Below are positions 35,423 to 52,930 of a DNA stretch of 64,000 bases, piece after piece. The notes beneath the pieces were generated by a model that worked only from the letters and a program-made list of their open reading frames with translations, did no database searches and was not told the origin of the DNA. The stretch covers positions 227,178 to 291,177 of the forward strand of contig JAFXDI010000001.1 in the NCBI GenBank assembly GCA_017521245.1. The letters are read 5' to 3'. Every line of letters begins with the position of its first letter. Within the stretch, counting starts at the first letter, position 1. A program made the position numbers and the translations under genes. The DNA comes from Bacteroidales bacterium. GTDB taxonomy: Bacteria; Bacteroidota; Bacteroidia; Bacteroidales; G3-4614.

Positions 35423-37396
35423 TCACTTATTCTCTTGAGGAACCTCTTTGCGGATAGCCTTAGTTCTAATCTCTTCACAGATTTCAGAAACAAACTGAGC
35501 CAAAGGTTTGCTACCCTCATCGCCGGCAAAGCGACTACGAACAGCAACCGAGTTGCTCTCTTCCTCTTGTTGACCAATAACCAACATATAAGGAACACGA
35601 TTGTTACGGGCATCGCGGATCTTGTATCCAATCTTCTCCGCTCTGCCATCAACAGTAACAAGCACTCCGTTGCGTTTAAGCTCTGCTGCAACCTTGTCAG
35701 CATACTCAATATATTTGTCAGATATAGGTAATATACGCACTTGTTCAGGAGATAACCAAGTTGGGAATTTACCCTCATATTTCTCAATCAACCAAGCAAG
35801 AGTACGCTCGTAGCAACCCATACTTGTACGGTGAATAATATAAGGTCTTACTTTCTCTCCGTTTTGGTCAATGTAGTACATATCAAATTGTTCGCTCAAT
35901 AGAGCATCCCATTGAACAGTAATCATAGTATCCTCTTTACCATAAACGTTCTTAGCGTTTATATCAACCTTAGGACCATAGAATGCAGCACCACCAACCT
36001 CTTCAACAAAAGGAATTTCAAGTTCGCGTAACATTTGGCGAATATGCTCTTGAGTCTCCTCCCAAACCTCAGCAGTACCAATATATTTAGTAGTGTTCTC
36101 TGGGTCATATTTAGCCAAAACGTAAGTAACATCATCTTGCAGACCAAGAGTAGTCATAACATGTTTAGCCAAAGCAAGACAGTTTTTAAACTCTTCCACC
36201 ATCTGGTCGGGGCGAACAATTAAGTGTCCCTCGCTTATAGTAAATTGACGAACGCGAGTCAAACCGTGCATCTCACCAGAATCCTCATTGCGGAATAGGG
36301 TAGAGGTCTCGCTATAACGTAAAGGAAGATCTCTATAAGAGTGTTGAGTTGCTTTGTAAACATAATATTGGAAAGGACAAGTCATAGGACGAAGAGCAAA
36401 CACCTCTTTATCCTCCTCCTCGTTACCAAGAACAAACATACCATCTTTGTAATGATCCCAGTGTCCCGAAATCTTATACAAATCGCTCTTTGCCATCAAA
36501 GGAGTTTTAGTTCTGATGTAACCCCACTCGTTATCCTCCAAATCCTCAATCCAACGTTGAAGAGTTTGAACAATCTTAGCACCCTTAGGCATAAGCAAAG
36601 GCAAACCTTGACCAATAACATCAACAGTTGTGAACAACTCCATCTCTCTACCAATCTTGTTGTGGTCAATGTTTTTGATATGCTCCAAGTGAGCGAGATA
36701 AGCATCGCAATCCTCTTTAGTAAAGAACGCAGTACCATATATACGCGATAACGAAGCATTGCTCTTATCACCACGCCAATAAGCAGTTGAAGTTGAAAGT
36801 AACTTAAAGCCCTTAATCATTTTAGTATTTAACAAGTGAGGGCCCATACAAAGATCAACAAAATCATCTTGTGAATATAGAGTAATAGTCTCTCCCTCAG
36901 GGATAGCATCAATAAGTTCTAACTTATAAGGCTCGTTTTTAGCCTTCATAAGTTCATAAGCCTCATTTCTTGAAACAACCTTACGCTCAATTCTTGGGTT
37001 CGATTTAATAATCTTCTTCATCTCCTTCTCAATCTTCTCCAAATCCTCTTTGCTGAAAGGAGCACACTCAAAGTCATAGAAGAAACCTGTTTCAGTAGCA
37101 GGACCTATTGTAACTTTAGCCTCAGGGAAAAGATGGGTAACCGCCTCTGCCATAATGTGAGTAGTGGTGTGGCGAAGAATATGAAGAGCCTCCTTGCTAT
37201 CGGTAGTAACAAGTTCAATATCGCAATCCGTCGTGATAGTCGTTCTTAAATCGGTAATTTCGCCGTTTAATTTAACGGCAACAACACTATTTAAAAGTTG
37301 AGGATCAATCGATTTTAAAACATCGATAAAATTTACCTCGTTGCTCTCAGTACAAAACTCTTGAGCATTTCCGTTAAGTAATTTAACTTTAATCAT
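35423..37396 (-). CDS. thrS: Threonine--tRNA ligase
   Basis: At 657 aa it has a TGS domain, an editing domain (HILRHTTTHIMA), a class II core and an anticodon-binding domain. Confidence 0.95.
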   Translation of the reverse strand: MIKVKLLNGNAQEFCTESNEVNFIDVLKSIDPQLLNSVVAVKLNGEITDLRTTITTDCDIELVTTDSKEALHILRHTTTHIMAEAVTHLFPEAKVTIGPATETGFFYDFECAPFSKEDLEKIEKEMKKIIKSNPRIERKVVSRNEAYELMKAKNEPYKLELIDAIPEGETITLYSQDDFVDLCMGPHLLNTKMIKGFKLLSTSTAYWRGDKSNASLSRIYGTAFFTKEDCDAYLAHLEHIKNIDHNKIGREMELFTTVDVIGQGLPLLMPKGAKIVQTLQRWIEDLEDNEWGYIRTKTPLMAKSDLYKISGHWDHYKDGMFVLGNEEEDKEVFALRPMTCPFQYYVYKATQHSYRDLPLRYSETSTLFRNEDSGEMHGLTRVRQFTISEGHLIVRPDQMVEEFKNCLALAKHVMTTLGLQDDVTYVLAKYDPENTTKYIGTAEVWEETQEHIRQMLRELEIPFVEEVGGAAFYGPKVDINAKNVYGKEDTMITVQWDALLSEQFDMYYIDQNGEKVRPYIIHRTSMGCYERTLAWLIEKYEGKFPTWLSPEQVRILPISDKYIEYADKVAAELKRNGVLVTVDGRAEKIGYKIRDARNNRVPYMLVIGQQEEESNSVAVRSRFAGDEGSKPLAQFVSEICEEIRTKAIRKEVPQENK

Positions 37397-39287: not shown

Positions 39288-39359
39288 AACTTCTCTTGTT
39301 TTTGAGGTTAATTTTTTGCAAGATATTAAATAAATTAATAATATGCAAGGGAAAAATTA

Positions 39360-39368
39360 CCCCCCCCC
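39360..39368. repeat. C9 / G9 homopolymeric tract in the divergent intergenic region
   Basis: Nine consecutive C are read directly (tac ccc ccc cct). It is the longest G/C run I saw in the window by a wide margin. Confidence 0.95.
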
Positions 39369-39427
39369 TATTTTAACATATATTAACTATATAAACAATA
39401 CAAATTGGATAATTACCAACTTATTAT

Positions 39428-39435
39428 TACCTTCG
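39428..39435 (+). promoter_or_regulatory. Candidate -7 box TACCTTCG (TTCG variant) for ybaK
   Basis: The sequence attaccttcgcattt lies 22 nt upstream of the ATG at 39457. Confidence 0.45.
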
Positions 39436-39456
39436 CATTTGCAAATTAAGATAACG

Positions 39457-39939
39457 ATGAAACCTCAAAAGATAAATAAAACCAATGTTGCACGTCTGTT
39501 AGACAAAGCAAAAATTGAGTATGAGTTGATACCCTACGAAGTAGATGAGAGCGACCTTGGGGCTCAGCATATTGCCGACCAACTTGGCGAAGATATAAAT
39601 CAGGTATTCAAAACCCTTGTGTTGCGAGGTGATCGCAACGGACTGTTTGTTTGTGTTATACCGGGTAATTGCGAAGTAAACCTAAAATATGCAGCAAAGG
39701 TATCTGGTAACAAAAGTGCCGAGATGATAGCAATGAAAGAGTTATTACCTTTGACAGGTTACATTCGTGGAGGTTGTTGTCCAATAGGAATGAAAAAGCC
39801 ATATCCCACATTCTTTCACTCAACAGCCACAAACTTCCCTTATATATATGTAAGTGCAGGAGTGCGAGGATTACAACTTAAAATATCGCCTCAAAAACTA
39901 ATCGATTATGTAGGAGCAGAAATTACCGAACTATTTTGA
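39457..39939 (+). CDS. ybaK: Cys-tRNA(Pro)/Cys-tRNA(Cys) deacylase YbaK
   Basis: The sequence KTNVARLLDKAKIEYELIPY...VFKTLVLRGD...LTGYIRGGCCPIGMKK matches YbaK. I used the internal ATG at 39457 because the track start at 39343 would read through the promoter and the C9 tract. Confidence 0.85.
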   Translation: MKPQKINKTNVARLLDKAKIEYELIPYEVDESDLGAQHIADQLGEDINQVFKTLVLRGDRNGLFVCVIPGNCEVNLKYAAKVSGNKSAEMIAMKELLPLTGYIRGGCCPIGMKKPYPTFFHSTATNFPYIYVSAGVRGLQLKISPQKLIDYVGAEITELF

Positions 39940-43854: not shown

Positions 43855-44628
43855 TTACTTCAATTTTCCTCGAATTGCATTCAAGTATTTTATCATTCCT
43901 GATGCGTCTTTCTCTTCTACCATCTTTTGTAATATAGATAACTGTTTTTGTATATCTTCTAATTGTTGTGGTGTGTGAGGGTTGAAAAGAATTTCGGTTA
44001 ATAGATAGTCATCTTCTGATAGCAATCCTCGAGCTATGTTCATGTGCTTTTTGAATGTTGTTCCTGGTGCATCTTGATGTTTCATTACACTTGCAAAAAC
44101 TAATGTTGAAGCAAAGGGAATTGATAGCGAGTAGGCTATTGTTTCATCGTGCTCTTGGAATGTATATTCAAATATGTTCAAATGTAACTTGCTATACAAG
44201 TCTTTAAAAAAGACTTTTCCTAAGTGGTCACTCTCTGAAATGATTATTGTGTTTTGTGTACTTAAATCACTTAGGTTGGCAAATGTTGGCCCGAACATTG
44301 GGTGTGTTGAAACAAACGGACGCCCTGCCTCTTTATAAAATTCAGGCAACCCTGTTTTTACTGATGCTATATCTGAAATTATACATCTTTCGGGGAGATA
44401 TGGTATCACCTCTTTAAAAGCATCAATGGTATATTTTACCGTTACTGCATTTATAAGTAGTTCGGGTTCAAACTCTTTTATCTCCTCTAATTCTGAAAAT
44501 CGTAGGGTGTTGAATGTAAATCGTAAGCGTGCAGAATCTTTATCGAACATTGCCACTTCGTGTTCAAAACTTAACACATCGGCAAAGAACGATCCCATCT
44601 TGCCTGCTCCCATTATTAATATTTTCAT
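43855..44628 (-). CDS. tyrA: Prephenate dehydrogenase
   Basis: The N-terminal Rossmann fold reads MKILIMGAGKMGSFF. The HPMFGP motif and the operon context with DAHP synthase/chorismate mutase support the call. Confidence 0.8.
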   Translation of the reverse strand: MKILIMGAGKMGSFFADVLSFEHEVAMFDKDSARLRFTFNTLRFSELEEIKEFEPELLINAVTVKYTIDAFKEVIPYLPERCIISDIASVKTGLPEFYKEAGRPFVSTHPMFGPTFANLSDLSTQNTIIISESDHLGKVFFKDLYSKLHLNIFEYTFQEHDETIAYSLSIPFASTLVFASVMKHQDAPGTTFKKHMNIARGLLSEDDYLLTEILFNPHTPQQLEDIQKQLSILQKMVEEKDASGMIKYLNAIRGKLK

Positions 44629-44726: not shown

Positions 44727-45800
44727 TTAGTTATCGCTTTTCAATATCTCAACTTGTTGACGAACACTCTCTTCGTGTATGGCTTGCATAATTGTCATCA
44801 TAAATTCACCTTTCATTTCAGCTGCTTCAGCTTGCTCAACTCGTTTTTTCAATATCTCATCGTAGCGTGCTGCTTGAAGAACTGTCATTTTATGTTCTTT
44901 TTTAAATCTTCCTATCTCGCGAGATACACGCATACGTTTTGCCAAAAGGTCTATTAGTTCGTTATCCAATACATCAATTTGTTTACGAAGGTCTCCTAAG
45001 TCTTCGGTAGTTGTGTGTTGGTCACGTATAATCAAATCATCTAATACAAGATCAAGTGCTCCCGGTGTTATTTGTTGGTTCTTATCGCTCCATGCATAGT
45101 CAGGAGAACAGTGTGACTCTATTATAAGTCCGTCAAATCCCAAGTCCATTGCTTGTTGAGATAGTGGAGCAATAAAATCACGTTTTCCACCGATATGACT
45201 GGGATCACTAAATATTGGTAAATCCGGCAAACGACGACGCAACTCAATGGGTATATGCCATTGTGGCGAGTTACGATATACTTTTTCATCGTAGCTGCTA
45301 AATCCACGATGTATTGCACCTATTTTGCGTAGTCCTGCATTGTATATACGTTGTATTCCTCCTATCCATAGTTCTATATCGGGGTTTACTGGGTTTTTAA
45401 TCAATACTGGAATGTCTGCTCCTTTTAGTGCATCAGCAATCTCTTGCATAGCAAAGGGGTTAGCTGTTGTTCTTGCACCTATCCACAACAAATCTACTCC
45501 GTGTTTTAATGCTTCAAGTACATGGTATTGGTTTGCAACCTCAGTTGCTACATACATTCCTGTCTCTGCTTTTACTTTTTTAAGCCACAAAAGACCTTCG
45601 CTTCCAACTCCTTCAAAACCTCCCGGTTTTGTGCGTGGTTTCCATATTCCGGCACGGAATATTTTTATACCTCGCGATGCTAAATCTTTTGCTGTCTCCA
45701 TTACTTGATCCTCTGTCTCTGCACTACAAGGACCTGCTATTACAAGTGGGCGTTTTGCGTCTAACCCTGGAAGGGTGATTGGTTCAAATTGCATTTCCAT
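44727..45800 (-). CDS. Bifunctional 3-deoxy-7-phosphoheptulonate (DAHP) synthase / chorismate mutase
   Basis: The N-terminal region is KDO8P/DAHPS I-beta-like (VIAGPCSAE, DPSH). The C-terminal ~90 aa form a type II chorismate mutase helix pattern (LRKQIDVLDNELIDLLAKRMRVSREIGRFK). Confidence 0.87.
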   Translation of the reverse strand: MEMQFEPITLPGLDAKRPLVIAGPCSAETEDQVMETAKDLASRGIKIFRAGIWKPRTKPGGFEGVGSEGLLWLKKVKAETGMYVATEVANQYHVLEALKHGVDLLWIGARTTANPFAMQEIADALKGADIPVLIKNPVNPDIELWIGGIQRIYNAGLRKIGAIHRGFSSYDEKVYRNSPQWHIPIELRRRLPDLPIFSDPSHIGGKRDFIAPLSQQAMDLGFDGLIIESHCSPDYAWSDKNQQITPGALDLVLDDLIIRDQHTTTEDLGDLRKQIDVLDNELIDLLAKRMRVSREIGRFKKEHKMTVLQAARYDEILKKRVEQAEAAEMKGEFMMTIMQAIHEESVRQQVEILKSDN

Positions 45801-45830: not shown

Positions 45831-46994
45831 TTATAATATTGCTTTAATTCTCTCTTTTGCTTCTTTTAATTTCTCTTCTGTTGCACATAGTGATATGCGT
45901 ATAAATTTATCGCCTTCGCTTCCAAATATCATTCCTGGTGTTATGAATACTCTTGCATCGTATAATATTTTATCGGCTAACTCTGCTCCATCTTTATATT
46001 TATCAGGGACTTTTGCCCATAGGAACATTCCTCGTTGTGCCGGATCAAATTTACATCCTAACATTGTGGCTATCTCTTCGGCTAATACTCTTCGTGGACG
46101 ATATATTGTGTTTATCTCTTCGTACCACTCCTTGCCAAGCGATAGAGCTTTTGATGCAGCTATTTGCATTGAGCGGAATGTTCCTGAATCGATATTGCTT
46201 TTTACCCTTAATACCCACGCTACAAATTGAGGATTTGATGCTAACATTCCTACACGCCAACCTGGCATATTATGCGATTTGCTCATTGAGTTGAGTTCGA
46301 TACATATATCTTTTGCTCCCTCTACTGATAAAATACTTAATGGATTATCGTTAAGGATAAAACTATATGGATTATCGTTTACTATTACTATGCCATGTTT
46401 TTTACCAAAGGCTACCAACTGCTCAAACAACTCTTTTGTGGCTACTCTTCCTGTTGGCATATTGGGATAGTTTACCCACATTAGTTTTACGTTTGAGAGG
46501 TCATTTTTCTCTATCTCATCAAAGTCGGGCAACCAATCGTTCTCCTCTTTTAGATTATAGGTTATTATGTTTGCCTCTGCTAAACGACTTACCGAACTAT
46601 ATGTTGGGTATCCTGGATTGGGAACTAATACTCCATCACCTTGATTTAGGAACGCCAACGAAATGTGCAATATTCCCTCTTTTGAGCCTATAAGTGGCTG
46701 TATCTCTGTTTTTGAATCAAGTTCTACACCAAACCATGTTGAGTACCATGTGGCAAATGCCTCGCGTAATTTAGCTATACCTACGTATGGCTGGTATCCG
46801 TGTGCTGTATCTTGTGCGGCATCGTTTGATAAAGTCTCAATTACCTCTTTATGAGGTGGACGGTCAGGACTGCCTATTCCTAAACTTATTACATCCAAAC
46901 CTCGTGCATTCATCTCTGCCACCTCTTTTAATTTCTTCGAAAAGTAGTACTCGCTTATTGTTCCTACTCTGTTTGCAGGTTTAATCTCTTTCAT
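45831..46994 (-). CDS. Class I/II PLP-dependent aminotransferase (probable aromatic/prephenate aminotransferase)
   Basis: The PLP-lysine context reads NSMSKSHNMPGWRVG. It is the first gene of the aromatic operon. Confidence 0.85.
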   Translation of the reverse strand: MKEIKPANRVGTISEYYFSKKLKEVAEMNARGLDVISLGIGSPDRPPHKEVIETLSNDAAQDTAHGYQPYVGIAKLREAFATWYSTWFGVELDSKTEIQPLIGSKEGILHISLAFLNQGDGVLVPNPGYPTYSSVSRLAEANIITYNLKEENDWLPDFDEIEKNDLSNVKLMWVNYPNMPTGRVATKELFEQLVAFGKKHGIVIVNDNPYSFILNDNPLSILSVEGAKDICIELNSMSKSHNMPGWRVGMLASNPQFVAWVLRVKSNIDSGTFRSMQIAASKALSLGKEWYEEINTIYRPRRVLAEEIATMLGCKFDPAQRGMFLWAKVPDKYKDGAELADKILYDARVFITPGMIFGSEGDKFIRISLCATEEKLKEAKERIKAIL

Positions 46995-47006
46995 TGTTAT
47001 ATTAAT

Positions 47007-47035
47007 AAAAAATCCCGCTCTTTAAAGAACGGGAT
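47007..47035 (-). terminator. Attenuator terminator 12 nt upstream of the aminotransferase ATG
   Basis: The minus-strand RNA reads AUCCCGUUC-UUUAAA-GAGCGGGAU followed by UUUUUAUU. Confidence 0.65.
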
Positions 47036-47088
47036 ATTGTATTTGTTTTTATTTATTTCTTATATCTTACACACGCAAAACCCCGCTC

Positions 47089-47151
47089 TTACTTGATGTT
47101 AAAGTAAAAGTAATAATAAAAGTATGCGAATGTTGACATTAAGTTTTTCAT
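47089..47151 (-). CDS. Aromatic amino-acid operon leader peptide (20 aa, MKNLMSTFAYFYYYFYFNIK)
   Basis: This is my own translation. Nine of 20 codons are Phe/Tyr and eight of them are consecutive. The stop codon abuts the antiterminator arm. Confidence 0.6.
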   Translation of the reverse strand: MKNLMSTFAYFYYYFYFNIK

Positions 47152-47185
47152 CTCGTTTTTATGCGGTTTTGTAATTTCCACCTTG

Positions 47186-47193
47186 CAAAGGTA
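47186..47193 (-). promoter_or_regulatory. Candidate -7 box TACCTTTG, with TTTG 19 nt upstream (47213-47216), for the leader and aromatic operon
   Basis: The reverse complement of caaaggta lies 35 nt upstream of the leader ATG. Confidence 0.5.
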
Positions 47194-47253
47194 TATAGAT
47201 TTTTCTTCTTTACAAATATTTTGATATTTTTTTTCAAGATTTTTTTTTGCAAA

Positions 47254-48249
47254 CTATTCAAATCTATAAATATTGCTTCTGCTTCGTTCTTGTTGCTCTC
47301 TTAAATCAAGTCGTAATTGTTGAATATAATCTGATAGATATGCGATCTCGGGATCATATACGCTCTTCTTGCGTGAATGGAGTGCGAATGATATACGTGC
47401 CCACATTAACGACTTATCAAAATTGTGTTTTATCTCTTCGTACATTGCTAAATTTGCTGCTGTTCGTGCTTGAAATTTCTTTGAACGTTTATTTTCATAA
47501 AGATATTCCCATATAAATGACGCTTCATCGTATTTTCCTTCTCTCCAAAATTTATCTGCTTTTCGCATCATTCTGTTGCCTGAGACAAAATAGAGTCGTA
47601 CAAAACTTTTGTTACTTGGCATAAATTGTGTCGATGCTACTCTTGCTATATTGGGAACTAATTTATTTATACATTCATTGTGTGATGGTAATGAATTTAT
47701 TGCCTCTTCACGTGTATAACCTGCTCCATTAAATACTAATGTATCAACACACGAATATGATACTATTGTATCATAATTAGGACGGGCAATAGAGAGTTGT
47801 ATTTCGGTGGGCACAAACAAATCAACAAAGTGCCAATCTTCATCTATTGTTCCTGAACGATAATAGGGATTTATATAAACCTTATTTAATGCTATAATAT
47901 TATTTCCCGAAGGATTGTACTCTTCTATCTTATTCTTAGTTATTGGTTGCGAAGAGGGAGAATCAACAATGTACTCTTTTACTATGCAGGGGGATTCTGA
48001 TGAGTTTAGTCTGTCTGATATTGCTGCAAATATATATTGCGCAACAGAGTCTTGTATCTTCAATACTGTTTGATTCTCTTGTACTGATATTTTGCTTACA
48101 TTATATAATAGCACAATTGGGGTTGTATCAGAAAGAGCAATATTGGGAGCGTTCTTTATATTATACTCTACAACTTTCATTGATGTACAACTCATCATTG
48201 TAAGCATAATTGTTAGAAACAGATATATGGTTCCTTTTTTCATATTCAT
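47254..48249 (-). CDS. Putative lipoprotein of unknown function with a TPR-like C-terminal region
   Basis: A signal peptide plus lipobox (LTIMLTMMSC) is present. No catalytic motif was recognised. Confidence 0.5.
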   Translation of the reverse strand: MNMKKGTIYLFLTIMLTMMSCTSMKVVEYNIKNAPNIALSDTTPIVLLYNVSKISVQENQTVLKIQDSVAQYIFAAISDRLNSSESPCIVKEYIVDSPSSQPITKNKIEEYNPSGNNIIALNKVYINPYYRSGTIDEDWHFVDLFVPTEIQLSIARPNYDTIVSYSCVDTLVFNGAGYTREEAINSLPSHNECINKLVPNIARVASTQFMPSNKSFVRLYFVSGNRMMRKADKFWREGKYDEASFIWEYLYENKRSKKFQARTAANLAMYEEIKHNFDKSLMWARISFALHSRKKSVYDPEIAYLSDYIQQLRLDLREQQERSRSNIYRFE

Positions 48250-48349
48250 TACTTTGTGTTTTATATCCTAAATTCCCGATTTATATACACAAAAGTAATG
48301 AATATTTTTATTTATAGGTTATTTCTGATTGTTAAATTGAGTATAAATT

Positions 48350-49615: not shown

Positions 49616-50455
49616 TTAACACAACTCTATTGTGGTTGGAGTTATTGTTATAAGTTTTGCTTTATATAATGCTCCTATTGCTTTTTTGTAACTTTTTTTA
49701 CTACAACCGAATATCTCGGCTATCTCTGTTGCCGATGATTTATCTGATAATGGGATTATCCCGCCTGATGCTTTTAGTTTATCGTATATCTCTGTTGCAA
49801 GGGCATCCATTGCTTGAACATCGTACCCTATTTTTTGTAGAGTTATGTCTAACTTCTCATCATTTCGGATATGTTTTACATAACCTTTTAAACGGTCGCC
49901 TTTTTGTATGGGAACAAATATCTCATTGTCATATATCATTCCGCTATGAAGACTGTTTACTATTACCTTCCAGCCTATATCGGTTTTTTGAGTTATAAGC
50001 AAATCAACCTCTTGGTTAAACTCATACTCAACAGGTGTATTATCTAAAAACTTATTTAGTTTTGCCGATGCAACAAGGCGTTGACTTTCAACATCGGCAT
50101 AGATATATACTATATATTTGTAGCCCTCTTTCATCTCGCTACGTTGTTCGCGAAAAGGTACTAACAGATCTTTTGGTAATCCCCAATCTAAAAATGCTCC
50201 TATTCGGTTTACTGATTTTACTTGCAAATAGGCAAATTCTCCTGCTTGAGCATAGGGTTTTAGTGTGGTTGCTATTATGCGATCTTCGGAATCGAGATAG
50301 AGGAAGACCTCTATTTCATCGCCTACCTTTGTTCCCTGGGGGATATATTTGGTTGGTAAAAGAATTTCTCCAAACTCTTCACCACCATCAAGGTACATCC
50401 CAAAGTCCAACTCTTTTACTACTTTTAGTGTGTTATATTTTCCTAACTTTGCCAT
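49616..50455 (-). CDS. S1-domain RNA-binding protein (CvfB/YitL family)
   Basis: The N-terminus MAKLGKYNTLKVVKELDFGMYLD is followed by repeated S1-like segments and a C-terminal winged-helix-like tail. Confidence 0.8.
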   Translation of the reverse strand: MAKLGKYNTLKVVKELDFGMYLDGGEEFGEILLPTKYIPQGTKVGDEIEVFLYLDSEDRIIATTLKPYAQAGEFAYLQVKSVNRIGAFLDWGLPKDLLVPFREQRSEMKEGYKYIVYIYADVESQRLVASAKLNKFLDNTPVEYEFNQEVDLLITQKTDIGWKVIVNSLHSGMIYDNEIFVPIQKGDRLKGYVKHIRNDEKLDITLQKIGYDVQAMDALATEIYDKLKASGGIIPLSDKSSATEIAEIFGCSKKSYKKAIGALYKAKLITITPTTIELC

Positions 50456-51875: not shown

Positions 51876-51883
51876 TAATTTTG
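51876..51883 (+). promoter_or_regulatory. Candidate -7 box TAATTTTG for pheS
   Basis: The sequence attaattttgcaac lies 28 nt upstream of the ATG at 51911. Confidence 0.45.
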
Positions 51884-51910
51884 CAACGTTTTAAACAAAA
51901 TGACTCTGTA

Positions 51911-52930
51911 ATGATAACTAAAATAGAGAATTTAAAGAAAGAGATTGAGGCGTTAAAGGCTTCAAATGCCGAAGAGGTTGAAGCTTTACGCATTAAATAT
52001 TTGAGTAAAAAAGGTGAAGTAACTTCGTTGTTGGCAGAATTTAGAAATGTTCCTGCCGAACAAAAACGCGAAGTTGGTAAACTTATTAACGATCTTAAAG
52101 AGTTTGCCACAGAAAAGATTAACGCTCTTAAAGAGGATGTTTTGAGTAATGTTAAGGAGGATGATACTATTGACCTTACTCGTTCAGCATATGTTTTAAA
52201 GAGAGGTACTCGTCACCCATTATCTATCGTTAAAAACGAGATTTGCGATATATTCGGCAAACTTGGTTTCTCAATAGCAGAGGGTCCGGAGGTTGAGGAT
52301 GACTGGCACGTATTCTCATCTCTTAACTTTGCAGAAGACCACCCAGCTCGCGATATGCAGGATACATTCTTTATTACTCGTAACCCAGATGTGCTTCTGC
52401 GTACACACACTTCATCGGTGCAAACTCGTGTTATGGAGAAGGCTCAACCACCTATCCGCATCATCTGTCCAGGACGAGTATATCGTAACGAGGCTATCTC
52501 TGCTCGCGCACACTGCTTCTTTCACCAAGTTGAAGCTCTGTATGTTGACAAAAATGTCACATTTGCCGATCTTAAACAGGCTCTATTGTTCTTTGCAAAA
52601 GAGATGTTTGGTCCAGAGACTAAGATTAGACTTCGCCCATCATACTTCCCCTTCACAGAGCCTTCGGCTGAGATGGATATATCTTGCAACCTGTGTGGAG
52701 GTAAAGGATGTTCTTTCTGTAAAGGAACAGGTTGGGTTGAAATTCTTGGTTGCGGTATGGTTGACCCCAACGTCTTAGAGGCTTGTGGTATAGATAGCAA
52801 AGAATATACAGGTTATGCTTTAGGTATGGGTGTTGAGCGTATCACTAATCTAAAATACCAAGTTAAAGACTTGCGTATGTTCTCTGAAAACGACAAACGT
52901 TTCTTGGAGGAGTTTGAGTCGGCTTTATAA
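51911..52930 (+). CDS. pheS: Phenylalanine--tRNA ligase alpha subunit
   Basis: Class II motifs are present (HPARDMQDTFF, FRNEA, FTEPS, GMGVERI). I chose the internal ATG at 51911 because the track start at 51881 overlaps the promoter box. Confidence 0.94.
   Translation: MITKIENLKKEIEALKASNAEEVEALRIKYLSKKGEVTSLLAEFRNVPAEQKREVGKLINDLKEFATEKINALKEDVLSNVKEDDTIDLTRSAYVLKRGTRHPLSIVKNEICDIFGKLGFSIAEGPEVEDDWHVFSSLNFAEDHPARDMQDTFFITRNPDVLLRTHTSSVQTRVMEKAQPPIRIICPGRVYRNEAISARAHCFFHQVEALYVDKNVTFADLKQALLFFAKEMFGPETKIRLRPSYFPFTEPSAEMDISCNLCGGKGCSFCKGTGWVEILGCGMVDPNVLEACGIDSKEYTGYALGMGVERITNLKYQVKDLRMFSENDKRFLEEFESAL

Follow-up and report, generated by a model that had tools for sequence, protein, structure and literature searches.

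Among described systems, the closest in design to the element reported here are the pheL-pheA and pheM-pheST leaders of Escherichia coli, in which a short open reading frame (ORF) with a run of Phe codons, alternative helices between four RNA segments (1:2, 2:3 and 3:4) and an intrinsic terminator just before a Phe-pathway gene are combined through the logic of ribosome stalling. The thr (Thr and Ile) and ilvGMEDA (Ile, Val and Leu) leaders of E. coli mix codons for several end products of a branched pathway in one leader. In Bacteroidetes, the Bacteroid-trp element is interpreted as a peptide leader with Trp codons. This family (RF01692) was defined as a cis-regulatory motif in Bacteroidetes by Weinberg et al. 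2010 (PMC2864571). Here we analyzed a 64,000-nucleotide (nt) stretch from a Bacteroidales bacterium (hereafter the window; assembly GCA_017521245.1, contig JAFXDI010000001.1, positions 227,178 to 291,177), which carries a short Phe/Tyr-rich leader before an aromatic amino-acid operon. All leader and operon elements lie on the minus strand of the window. We consider that the leader is very probably a ribosome-mediated transcription attenuator that senses charged tRNA-Phe and tRNA-Tyr. This assignment is based on the anatomy of the locus, its conservation, the co-variation of its arms, the coding constraint on its codon run and its geometry in silico, from which we infer leader translation, termination at the hairpin and a response to amino acids.

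The window leader shares the architecture of the E. coli Phe leaders but has no detectable homology with them. Its regulatory codons alternate between Phe and Tyr, its operon carries shared and Tyr-branch genes, and it has a TTTG/TAnnTTTG promoter and no Shine-Dalgarno sequence. The Rfam Phe_leader model (RF01859) gave 28.1 bits (E = 0.011) against the window leader, below its gathering score of 55, and the leader is thus not a member of that family. Codons for more than one end product in one leader peptide are shared with the multivalent thr and ilvGMEDA leaders; however, the amino acids differ and the families are unrelated (Thr_leader, 26.7 bits against a gathering score of 55). Bacteroid-trp is likewise a Bacteroidetes cis-regulatory leader before an aromatic (Trp) biosynthesis operon, but it is a separate family with Trp instead of Phe/Tyr codons and another operon, and RF01692 matched neither at its gathering score in the whole window nor at E ≤ 10 around the leader (46900-47350). 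No curated Rfam family, including riboswitches, T-boxes and protein-binding leaders, reached its gathering score in the 64 kb.

A preliminary description of the locus, made from the window alone, had claimed a promoter, a 20-codon leader ORF rich in Phe and Tyr (F/Y) and an overlap of its stop codon with an antiterminator arm, and each was confirmed at the same place. The promoter comprises a −33 element, TTTG (47213-47216), a 19-nt spacer and a −7 element of the Bacteroidetes TAnnTTTG type, TACCTTTG (47186-47193). The ATG of the leader ORF (47089-47151, 20 codons and a stop) is located at 47151, 34 nt past the −7 box. The ORF reads MKNLMSTFAYFYYYFYFNIK*, with F/Y at nine of the 20 residues, eight of these consecutive. 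The regulatory run, F-A-Y-F-Y-Y-Y-F-Y-F (codons 8-17, 47101-47130), is supported by the codon periodicity across the relatives described below. On both strands of the window, this is the single mini-ORF with at least six F/Y per seven residues. The TAA stop codon (47091-47089) overlaps the antiterminator arm AAGAGCGGGGT (47090-47080).

Four segments can be assigned to the leader. Segment 1 (47102-47133), recognized in the minimum-free-energy (MFE) and centroid folds, lies inside the ORF and forms the 5′ strand of a 1:2 stem-loop. Segment 2 (47069-47094) pairs with segment 1 or, via its core at 47080-47090 (AAGAGCGGGGU), with segment 3, as judged from duplex energy and co-variation. Segment 3, AUCCCGUUCU (47026-47035), is the 5′ arm of the terminator and is common to both alternative helices, and segment 4, AGAGCGGGAU (47012-47021), is the 3′ arm. 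The hairpin (47035-47012; ATCCCGTTCT/TTAA/AGAGCGGGAT) stands where it had been placed before, but its stem has 10 bp rather than the 9 bp first given, with a 4-nt loop, and the U-tract UUUUUUAU(U) runs on to 47004 (47004-47011). The sequence directly 3′ of the hairpin is TTTTTTATT, also given as UUUUUUAUU. The U-tract ends about 12 nt before the ATG of the aminotransferase gene (46994). A terminator scan of 1.2 kb (46500-47700) returned two sites, this hairpin included, where 0.4 are expected. The window leader folds more stably than its shuffles (z = −2.95). A comparison of the two helices, which the preliminary description had proposed as a check, showed that they are nearly isoenergetic, at −14.8 kcal/mol for the 2:3 antiterminator duplex and −14.2 kcal/mol for the terminator hairpin.

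Domain matches bore out the gene content claimed for the operon. The first regulated gene encodes a class I/II aminotransferase (45831-46994; PF00155, E = 6e-58), followed by a fusion of DAHP synthase and chorismate mutase (DAHPS/CM; 44727-45800; PF00793 and PF01817) and a prephenate dehydrogenase (PDH; 43855-44628; PF02153 and NF006409). These enzymes supply precursors of Phe and Tyr, the amino acids that the regulatory codons specify.

In the proposed mechanism, transcription would start a few bases past the TACCTTTG box and the 20-codon leader would be translated. Segment 1 would lie in the ORF and include the last F-Y-F codons, segment 2 would lie over the stop codon, and segments 3 and 4 in the terminator arms. 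When Phe or Tyr is scarce, a ribosome would stall in the ten-codon F/Y run and cover segment 1, leaving segment 2 free to pair with the newly made segment 3. The terminator would then not form, and RNA polymerase would read into the aminotransferase, DAHPS/CM and PDH genes. When Phe and Tyr are plentiful, the ribosome would reach the stop codon and mask segment 2, and the 1:2 stem-loop would re-form upon its release. Either way, segments 3 and 4 would fold as the terminator, and transcription would end about 12 nt before the first gene.

The leader is conserved in relatives. An aminotransferase scan, with one genome per species, gave 80 loci at 63-75% protein identity from Bacteroidaceae, Prevotellaceae, Muribaculaceae, Alistipes, Tannerellaceae, Dysgonomonadaceae, Paludibacteraceae, Barnesiella-like groups and one Marinilabiliales genome. 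An ORF scan restricted to ATG starts found an F/Y-rich mini-ORF in 73 of them, with the consensus M-x-x-F-x-[TA]-Y-F-Y-F-Y-F-Y-F; these 73 orthologous seed sequences and the window make up the 74 leaders referred to below. A covariance model (R1) built from the 73 orthologous leaders, with the window left out, matches 76 of the 80 loci, and the contigs of the other four stop short of the region in question. The leader design, with an in-frame ATG or GTG, is thus present in 76/76 loci with enough upstream sequence. One leader missed by the ATG-only scan, at L030:1953-2030, starts with GTG, reads (M)NRFYFTYSFYYFYFSKQVRQDFVCK and scores 105 bits with R1. Against the window, R1 matched 47001-47133 (−) over model positions 1-138 of 138 (92.9 bits, E = 1.1e-16); its next match was the reverse strand of the same hairpin (20.7 bits), and nothing else was recognized. 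Since R1 recognizes the window leader, the latter belongs to a coherent, uncurated Bacteroidales family. In 71/74 leaders, a TAnnTTTG box is found no more than 70 nt upstream of the start codon, and most orthologues have TTG or TTTG at the −33 spacing.

Like the mini-ORF, the terminator and its alternative pairing recur in the relatives, as the preliminary description had expected. An automatic detector found a terminator 49-85 nt past the F/Y run in 72/73 orthologous leaders, and that of L025 was assigned by eye. A stricter criterion (perfect stem, loop ≤8 nt) missed 20/73 (19 'NO TERM', and L056, which was not evaluated); the leaders missed have bulges or long loops. In 74/74 leaders, the first base of segment 2 comes 8-16 nt (median 10) past the last F/Y codon. 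The stop codon falls 6 to 54 nt after the run, and the position of segment 2 is independent of it. On average, segment 2 of a leader pairs with that leader's own segment-3 arm at −14.8 kcal/mol, with an arm exchanged from another locus at −11.1 kcal/mol and with shuffled sequence at −6.3 kcal/mol. In the MAFFT alignment A1, 90% of the terminator cells are paired, changes on both sides occur in 10/13 pairs, and the co-variation score was reached by 0/500 shuffles. The antiterminator is paired in 73% of cells, a share that falls to 39-47% if the register is shifted by 1-3 columns. Its pairs 72-170, 73-169, 74-168 and 76-166 alternate between GC and AU, and the segment-3 columns 166, 168 and 169 co-vary with segment 4 too. 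This three-way tracking of segments 2, 3 and 4 is the signature of alternative pairing and upholds the claim that antiterminator and terminator are mutually exclusive helices with a common 5′ arm.

The co-varying competitor also bears on a rival explanation, in which the hairpin controls translation of the first gene or insulates the operon constitutively and the mini-ORF is an unrelated gene for a small protein. The end of the U-tract lies just 12 nt from the aminotransferase ATG, as such a role might have it, and the hairpins of four relatives (L037, L045, L047 and L074) lack a good U-tract. However, a terminator alone needs no co-varying competitor 8-16 nt past the F/Y run everywhere, and a dedicated, conserved promoter stands between the upstream gene and the leader. 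Moreover, between 23 and 246 nt separate the leader stop codon from the first in-frame start of the next long ORF, which means that the relatives do not share a fixed occlusion of the start site. We regard this explanation as extremely unlikely.

In addition to these two helices, which the attenuator model of the preliminary description contained, the leader has a 1:2 stem-loop that this model had missed. The model was supported by every sequence-level test available but was incomplete. In the window, the MFE fold contains the 1:2 stem-loop, whose presence makes the element a complete four-segment attenuator. Since A1 shifts the 1:2 helices 1-2 nt out of register, they were assessed by per-sequence folds and not by column co-variation. 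In 71/74 leaders, pairing with the ORF takes up half or more of segment 2 (mean z = −2.75). The inner helix, UUUUACUUU / AAGURAAG, uses the last F-Y-F codons, and the outer helix, [AG]CAUA[CU] / [AG]UAUG[UC], uses a conserved Thr/Ala-Tyr codon pair. The outer pair of the latter is A-U in 33 leaders, G-C in 11 and G-U in 14.

The geometry of stalling and release was examined on nascent RNA that was folded as far as the last base of segment 3 while the ribosome footprint was masked at each codon in turn. Nascent folding was chosen because the decision is kinetic and the equilibrium of the whole leader is uninformative. In the window, nascent segment 2 is locked in the 1:2 stem-loop when no ribosome is present. 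With the A-site on codons 1-18, the 2:3 helix forms with 8-10 of its 10 pairs, and once the ribosome has moved to codons 19-20 or the stop codon, no antiterminator is seen. Among the 74 leaders, 84-91% gave the antiterminator when the A-site lay on an F/Y codon. This share dropped to 58% one codon past the run, to 4% at two codons and to 0% at three, and 2/74 leaders gave the antiterminator at the stop codon. The end of the F/Y run is thus the exact point at which the outcome switches, in agreement with the stall-versus-stop logic put forward at the outset.

The run itself carries a distinct coding constraint. Of the ten codons that end it (740 codons in all), 90% begin with T, while the second position holds T or A and the third T or C. 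None of the 740 is a Leu codon (TTA or TTG), while F-to-Y and Y-to-F exchanges and synonymous changes are frequent. The other two frames give mixed L/F/T/I/S strings, one with stop codons. Every leader has at least three Phe and at least two Tyr codons, and Trp occurs in none. Since Phe and Tyr codons are always both present, two amino acids appear to be sensed. Leader starts lie in an A-rich context, with A at +4 in 92%. No Shine-Dalgarno sequence is present upstream of the leader ATG in the window, and a similar motif is found in only 2/73 leaders. An A-rich start context free of Shine-Dalgarno sequences fits the initiation signals described for Bacteroidetes. These patterns argue strongly for translation of the leader ORF.

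The same patterns help to identify the sensor, which the alternative helices alone do not. A real switch could be set by a trans-acting factor, such as an RNA-binding protein, an uncharged tRNA or the ligand of an aptamer, with the F/Y ORF being incidental, and with Shine-Dalgarno-like motifs so rare, efficient leader translation is not to be assumed. On such an account, however, neither the strict F/Y codon periodicity, with its free synonymous and F/Y exchanges and its lack of Leu codons, nor the in-frame ATG or GTG at all 76 informative loci would be expected, and in the masked folds the switch occurs where the run ends. As described above, none of the Rfam families for riboswitches, T-boxes or protein-binding leaders matched at threshold, and the alignment has no conserved unpaired, aptamer-like motif beyond the four segments. 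A trans-acting sensor is therefore very unlikely, and we retain the ribosome as the probable sensor.

Several points weigh against attenuation by a translating ribosome. The masked folds assume a ribosome footprint of −18 to +12 relative to the A-site. At equilibrium, the complete leader prefers the terminator for every ribosome position, so that the model relies on co-transcriptional kinetics. Without a ribosome, the antiterminator is preferred at equilibrium in 43/74 nascent leaders, and the 1:2 stem-loop is dominant in 31/74; in those 43 relatives, the role of the 1:2 stem-loop must rest on its earlier synthesis. Six leaders never formed the antiterminator in the masked folds. The window operon has no prephenate dehydratase gene, so its Phe codons would regulate only shared and Tyr-branch steps. 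Within the library of papers searched, no experimental study of the element was found, and none that demonstrates leader translation, premature termination or a response to amino acids for this organism or for any Bacteroidales.

The operon context differs among relatives. Although the window genes are as first reported, this picture needs an amendment, since most relatives have a prephenate dehydratase gene next to the leader. In most loci, the leader precedes such a gene (PF00800), which heads the order pheA-aminotransferase-DAHPS/CM-PDH. About 70 other loci have it as the first gene of the operon; the window operon lacks it. A tblastn search detected no prephenate dehydratase in the entire 64-kb window. 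A 279-residue ORF at 49616-50455 was considered as a candidate and rejected, as it encodes an S1/CvfB-type protein. The leader stands directly before the aminotransferase gene in the window (46995-47253) and in four Bacteroidaceae metagenome-assembled genomes (L037, L045, L047 and L074). In these four, the U-tract after a strong hairpin is poor (L037:2880-2952, L045:650-727, L047:2890-2964 and L074:2888-2961; e.g., GGGACTTACATATAT), which raises the question of whether intrinsic termination takes place there.

The relatives also differ in leader layout. In one class of leaders, which includes the window, the stop codon comes 6-9 nt after the F/Y run; in the other, it comes 24-54 nt after the run, and the ORF would be translated through segment 2. 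This observation was drawn from L027, L048, L052, L060, L070 and others, with ORFs near position 2000. The clade-specific C-terminal tails (KVKREFVCV, KAGICM) are segment 2 read in frame. Tandem F/Y attenuators precede pheA at L002:1854-2150 and also at L003:1856-2115. In the second copy, an ORF of its own, MIQRFFRFYGYYFFYF..., is accompanied by a separate segment 2, AAGGUGGGA, and by a terminator that matches it, UCCCACCUU...AGAGUGGGA and then U7. R1 did not detect the second copies in L002 and L003 at E ≤ 0.001; these copies have their own co-varying arms and thus represent an independent replicate of the design. We tentatively suggest that the leaders form a distinct, not formally described family of dual Phe- and Tyr-sensing attenuators, found in 76/76 informative Bacteroidales loci and one Marinilabiliales genome. 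Such a family could perhaps be divided into sub-types by a stop codon before or after segment 2, by tandem attenuators and by a leader before pheA or before the aminotransferase gene.

The variable tails are relevant to a further proposal, namely that the released leader RNA or the F/Y-rich peptide works in trans besides the action in cis. Accounts of rnTrpL/peTrpL of Sinorhizobium meliloti (PMC6614838, PMC7298713) provide a precedent in another attenuator, and the terminated transcript, structured and about 170 nt long, would be abundant. However, the peptide is not conserved outside the F/Y run, its tails vary by clade, and nothing points to a target in trans. We consider an additional function of this kind very unlikely.

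An orthologous element had been listed in Bacteroides thetaiotaomicron. Song et al. 2005 (PMC1173090, Table 7) gave a putative attenuator, from the Merino database, before pheA > hisHb > aroA.aroQ > tyrA; the word 'leader' is absent from that paper. Supplementary data of Ryan et al. 2020 (PMC7366714) include a small ORF, sORF_00347 (NC_004663.1, 5111277-5111363, minus strand). It encodes MKSFSYAYYFFFYFYFSQKVEREFVCIK, followed by the same GAGCGGGAG segment, which identifies it as the orthologous element. The preliminary description relied on transcription starting upstream of the mini-ORF, and in this orthologue a primary transcription start site (TSS) was mapped by differential RNA sequencing (dRNA-seq) at 5111397(−), 34 nt upstream of the sORF_00347 ATG (PMC7366714). 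The same supplement holds a 19.4-bit Phe_leader match at this place, filed under 'RNA_thermometer', and the main text states that some long 5′ untranslated regions contain small ORFs "reminiscent of leader peptides". The B. thetaiotaomicron element shares its operon content and this segment with the window but precedes pheA, which is missing from the window operon, and its ORF reads through segment 2, whereas the window stop codon overlaps segment 2. Both Song et al. and Ryan et al. list the element without describing the F/Y leader-peptide mechanism. Guerin et al. are also named among prior art, and Naville & Gautheret 2010 do not mention Bacteroidetes. Literature searches for Term-seq or ribosome-profiling follow-up in Bacteroides returned nothing specific. 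The kind of element is not new; it was already flagged computationally in a model species, and its family is uncurated in Rfam 15. Earlier work by Vitreschak and colleagues (2004) reportedly predicted attenuators in Bacteroidetes/Chlorobi. The novelty suggested at first was too high, as attenuators before this operon, and leader-peptide attenuation in Bacteroidetes at large, had been predicted earlier.

Some features of the surroundings are worth recording. In the window, prfA comes after the PDH gene. Upstream of the leader lies a DUF6340 gene, and the hairpin was considered as its terminator; we rejected this possibility because the conserved promoter intervenes and the element accompanies the aromatic operon instead of the upstream gene. 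A second Bacteroidetes-type −7 box, TACTTTTG, occurs at 48280-48300 (−), just upstream of the DUF6340 gene; this box of its own suggests that the gene is transcribed apart from the leucine-rich repeat (LRR) protein gene upstream of it. Genes related to aminoacyl-tRNA are also located in the window, namely pheS (51881-52930, +), thrS (35423-37396, −) and an editing domain protein (39343-39939, +). A simple scan of the window found no further convincing leader-like mini-ORF, including upstream of pheS and thrS, in contrast to E. coli pheST and thrS. The divergent gap between tilS and pheS is only about 105 nt. The leader ORF was left uncalled by gene callers in the places examined. The leader region is 100% identical in four metagenome assemblies of the same organism (L081-L084), in which its 259 nt (positions 1242-1500) were left empty by gene callers; a comparison among these strains is therefore uninformative.

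The mechanism is a textbook one and would not surprise a specialist; the value of the finding lies in the definition of a family, a correction of annotation and a handle on transcription-translation coupling. With 74 aligned leaders, a four-segment structure and co-variation, the element is a candidate RNA family missing from Rfam 15. Its distinguishing traits are alternating Phe and Tyr codons, which indicate dual sensing, expression signals of the Bacteroidetes type and several structural sub-types. It explains a small ORF and a TSS in the B. thetaiotaomicron transcriptome atlas, as well as an "intergenic" gap of about 260 nt in many gut Bacteroidales genomes. The leader could also be a compact Phe/Tyr-responsive genetic part for the engineering of gut Bacteroides.

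Ribosome-mediated attenuation requires a ribosome close behind RNA polymerase. Such coupling of transcription and translation is reportedly absent in Bacillus subtilis, according to Johnson and colleagues (Nature, 2020), and it is not known to be established in Bacteroidota, whose translation starts do not use Shine-Dalgarno pairing. Since attenuation needs coupling and the leader is universally conserved, the leader provides indirect evidence that coupling operates in Bacteroidota, and it offers a simple reporter for a test of coupling in this phylum. If the proposed mechanism is true, the ubiquity of the family would imply tight transcription-translation coupling in bacteria without Shine-Dalgarno sequences.

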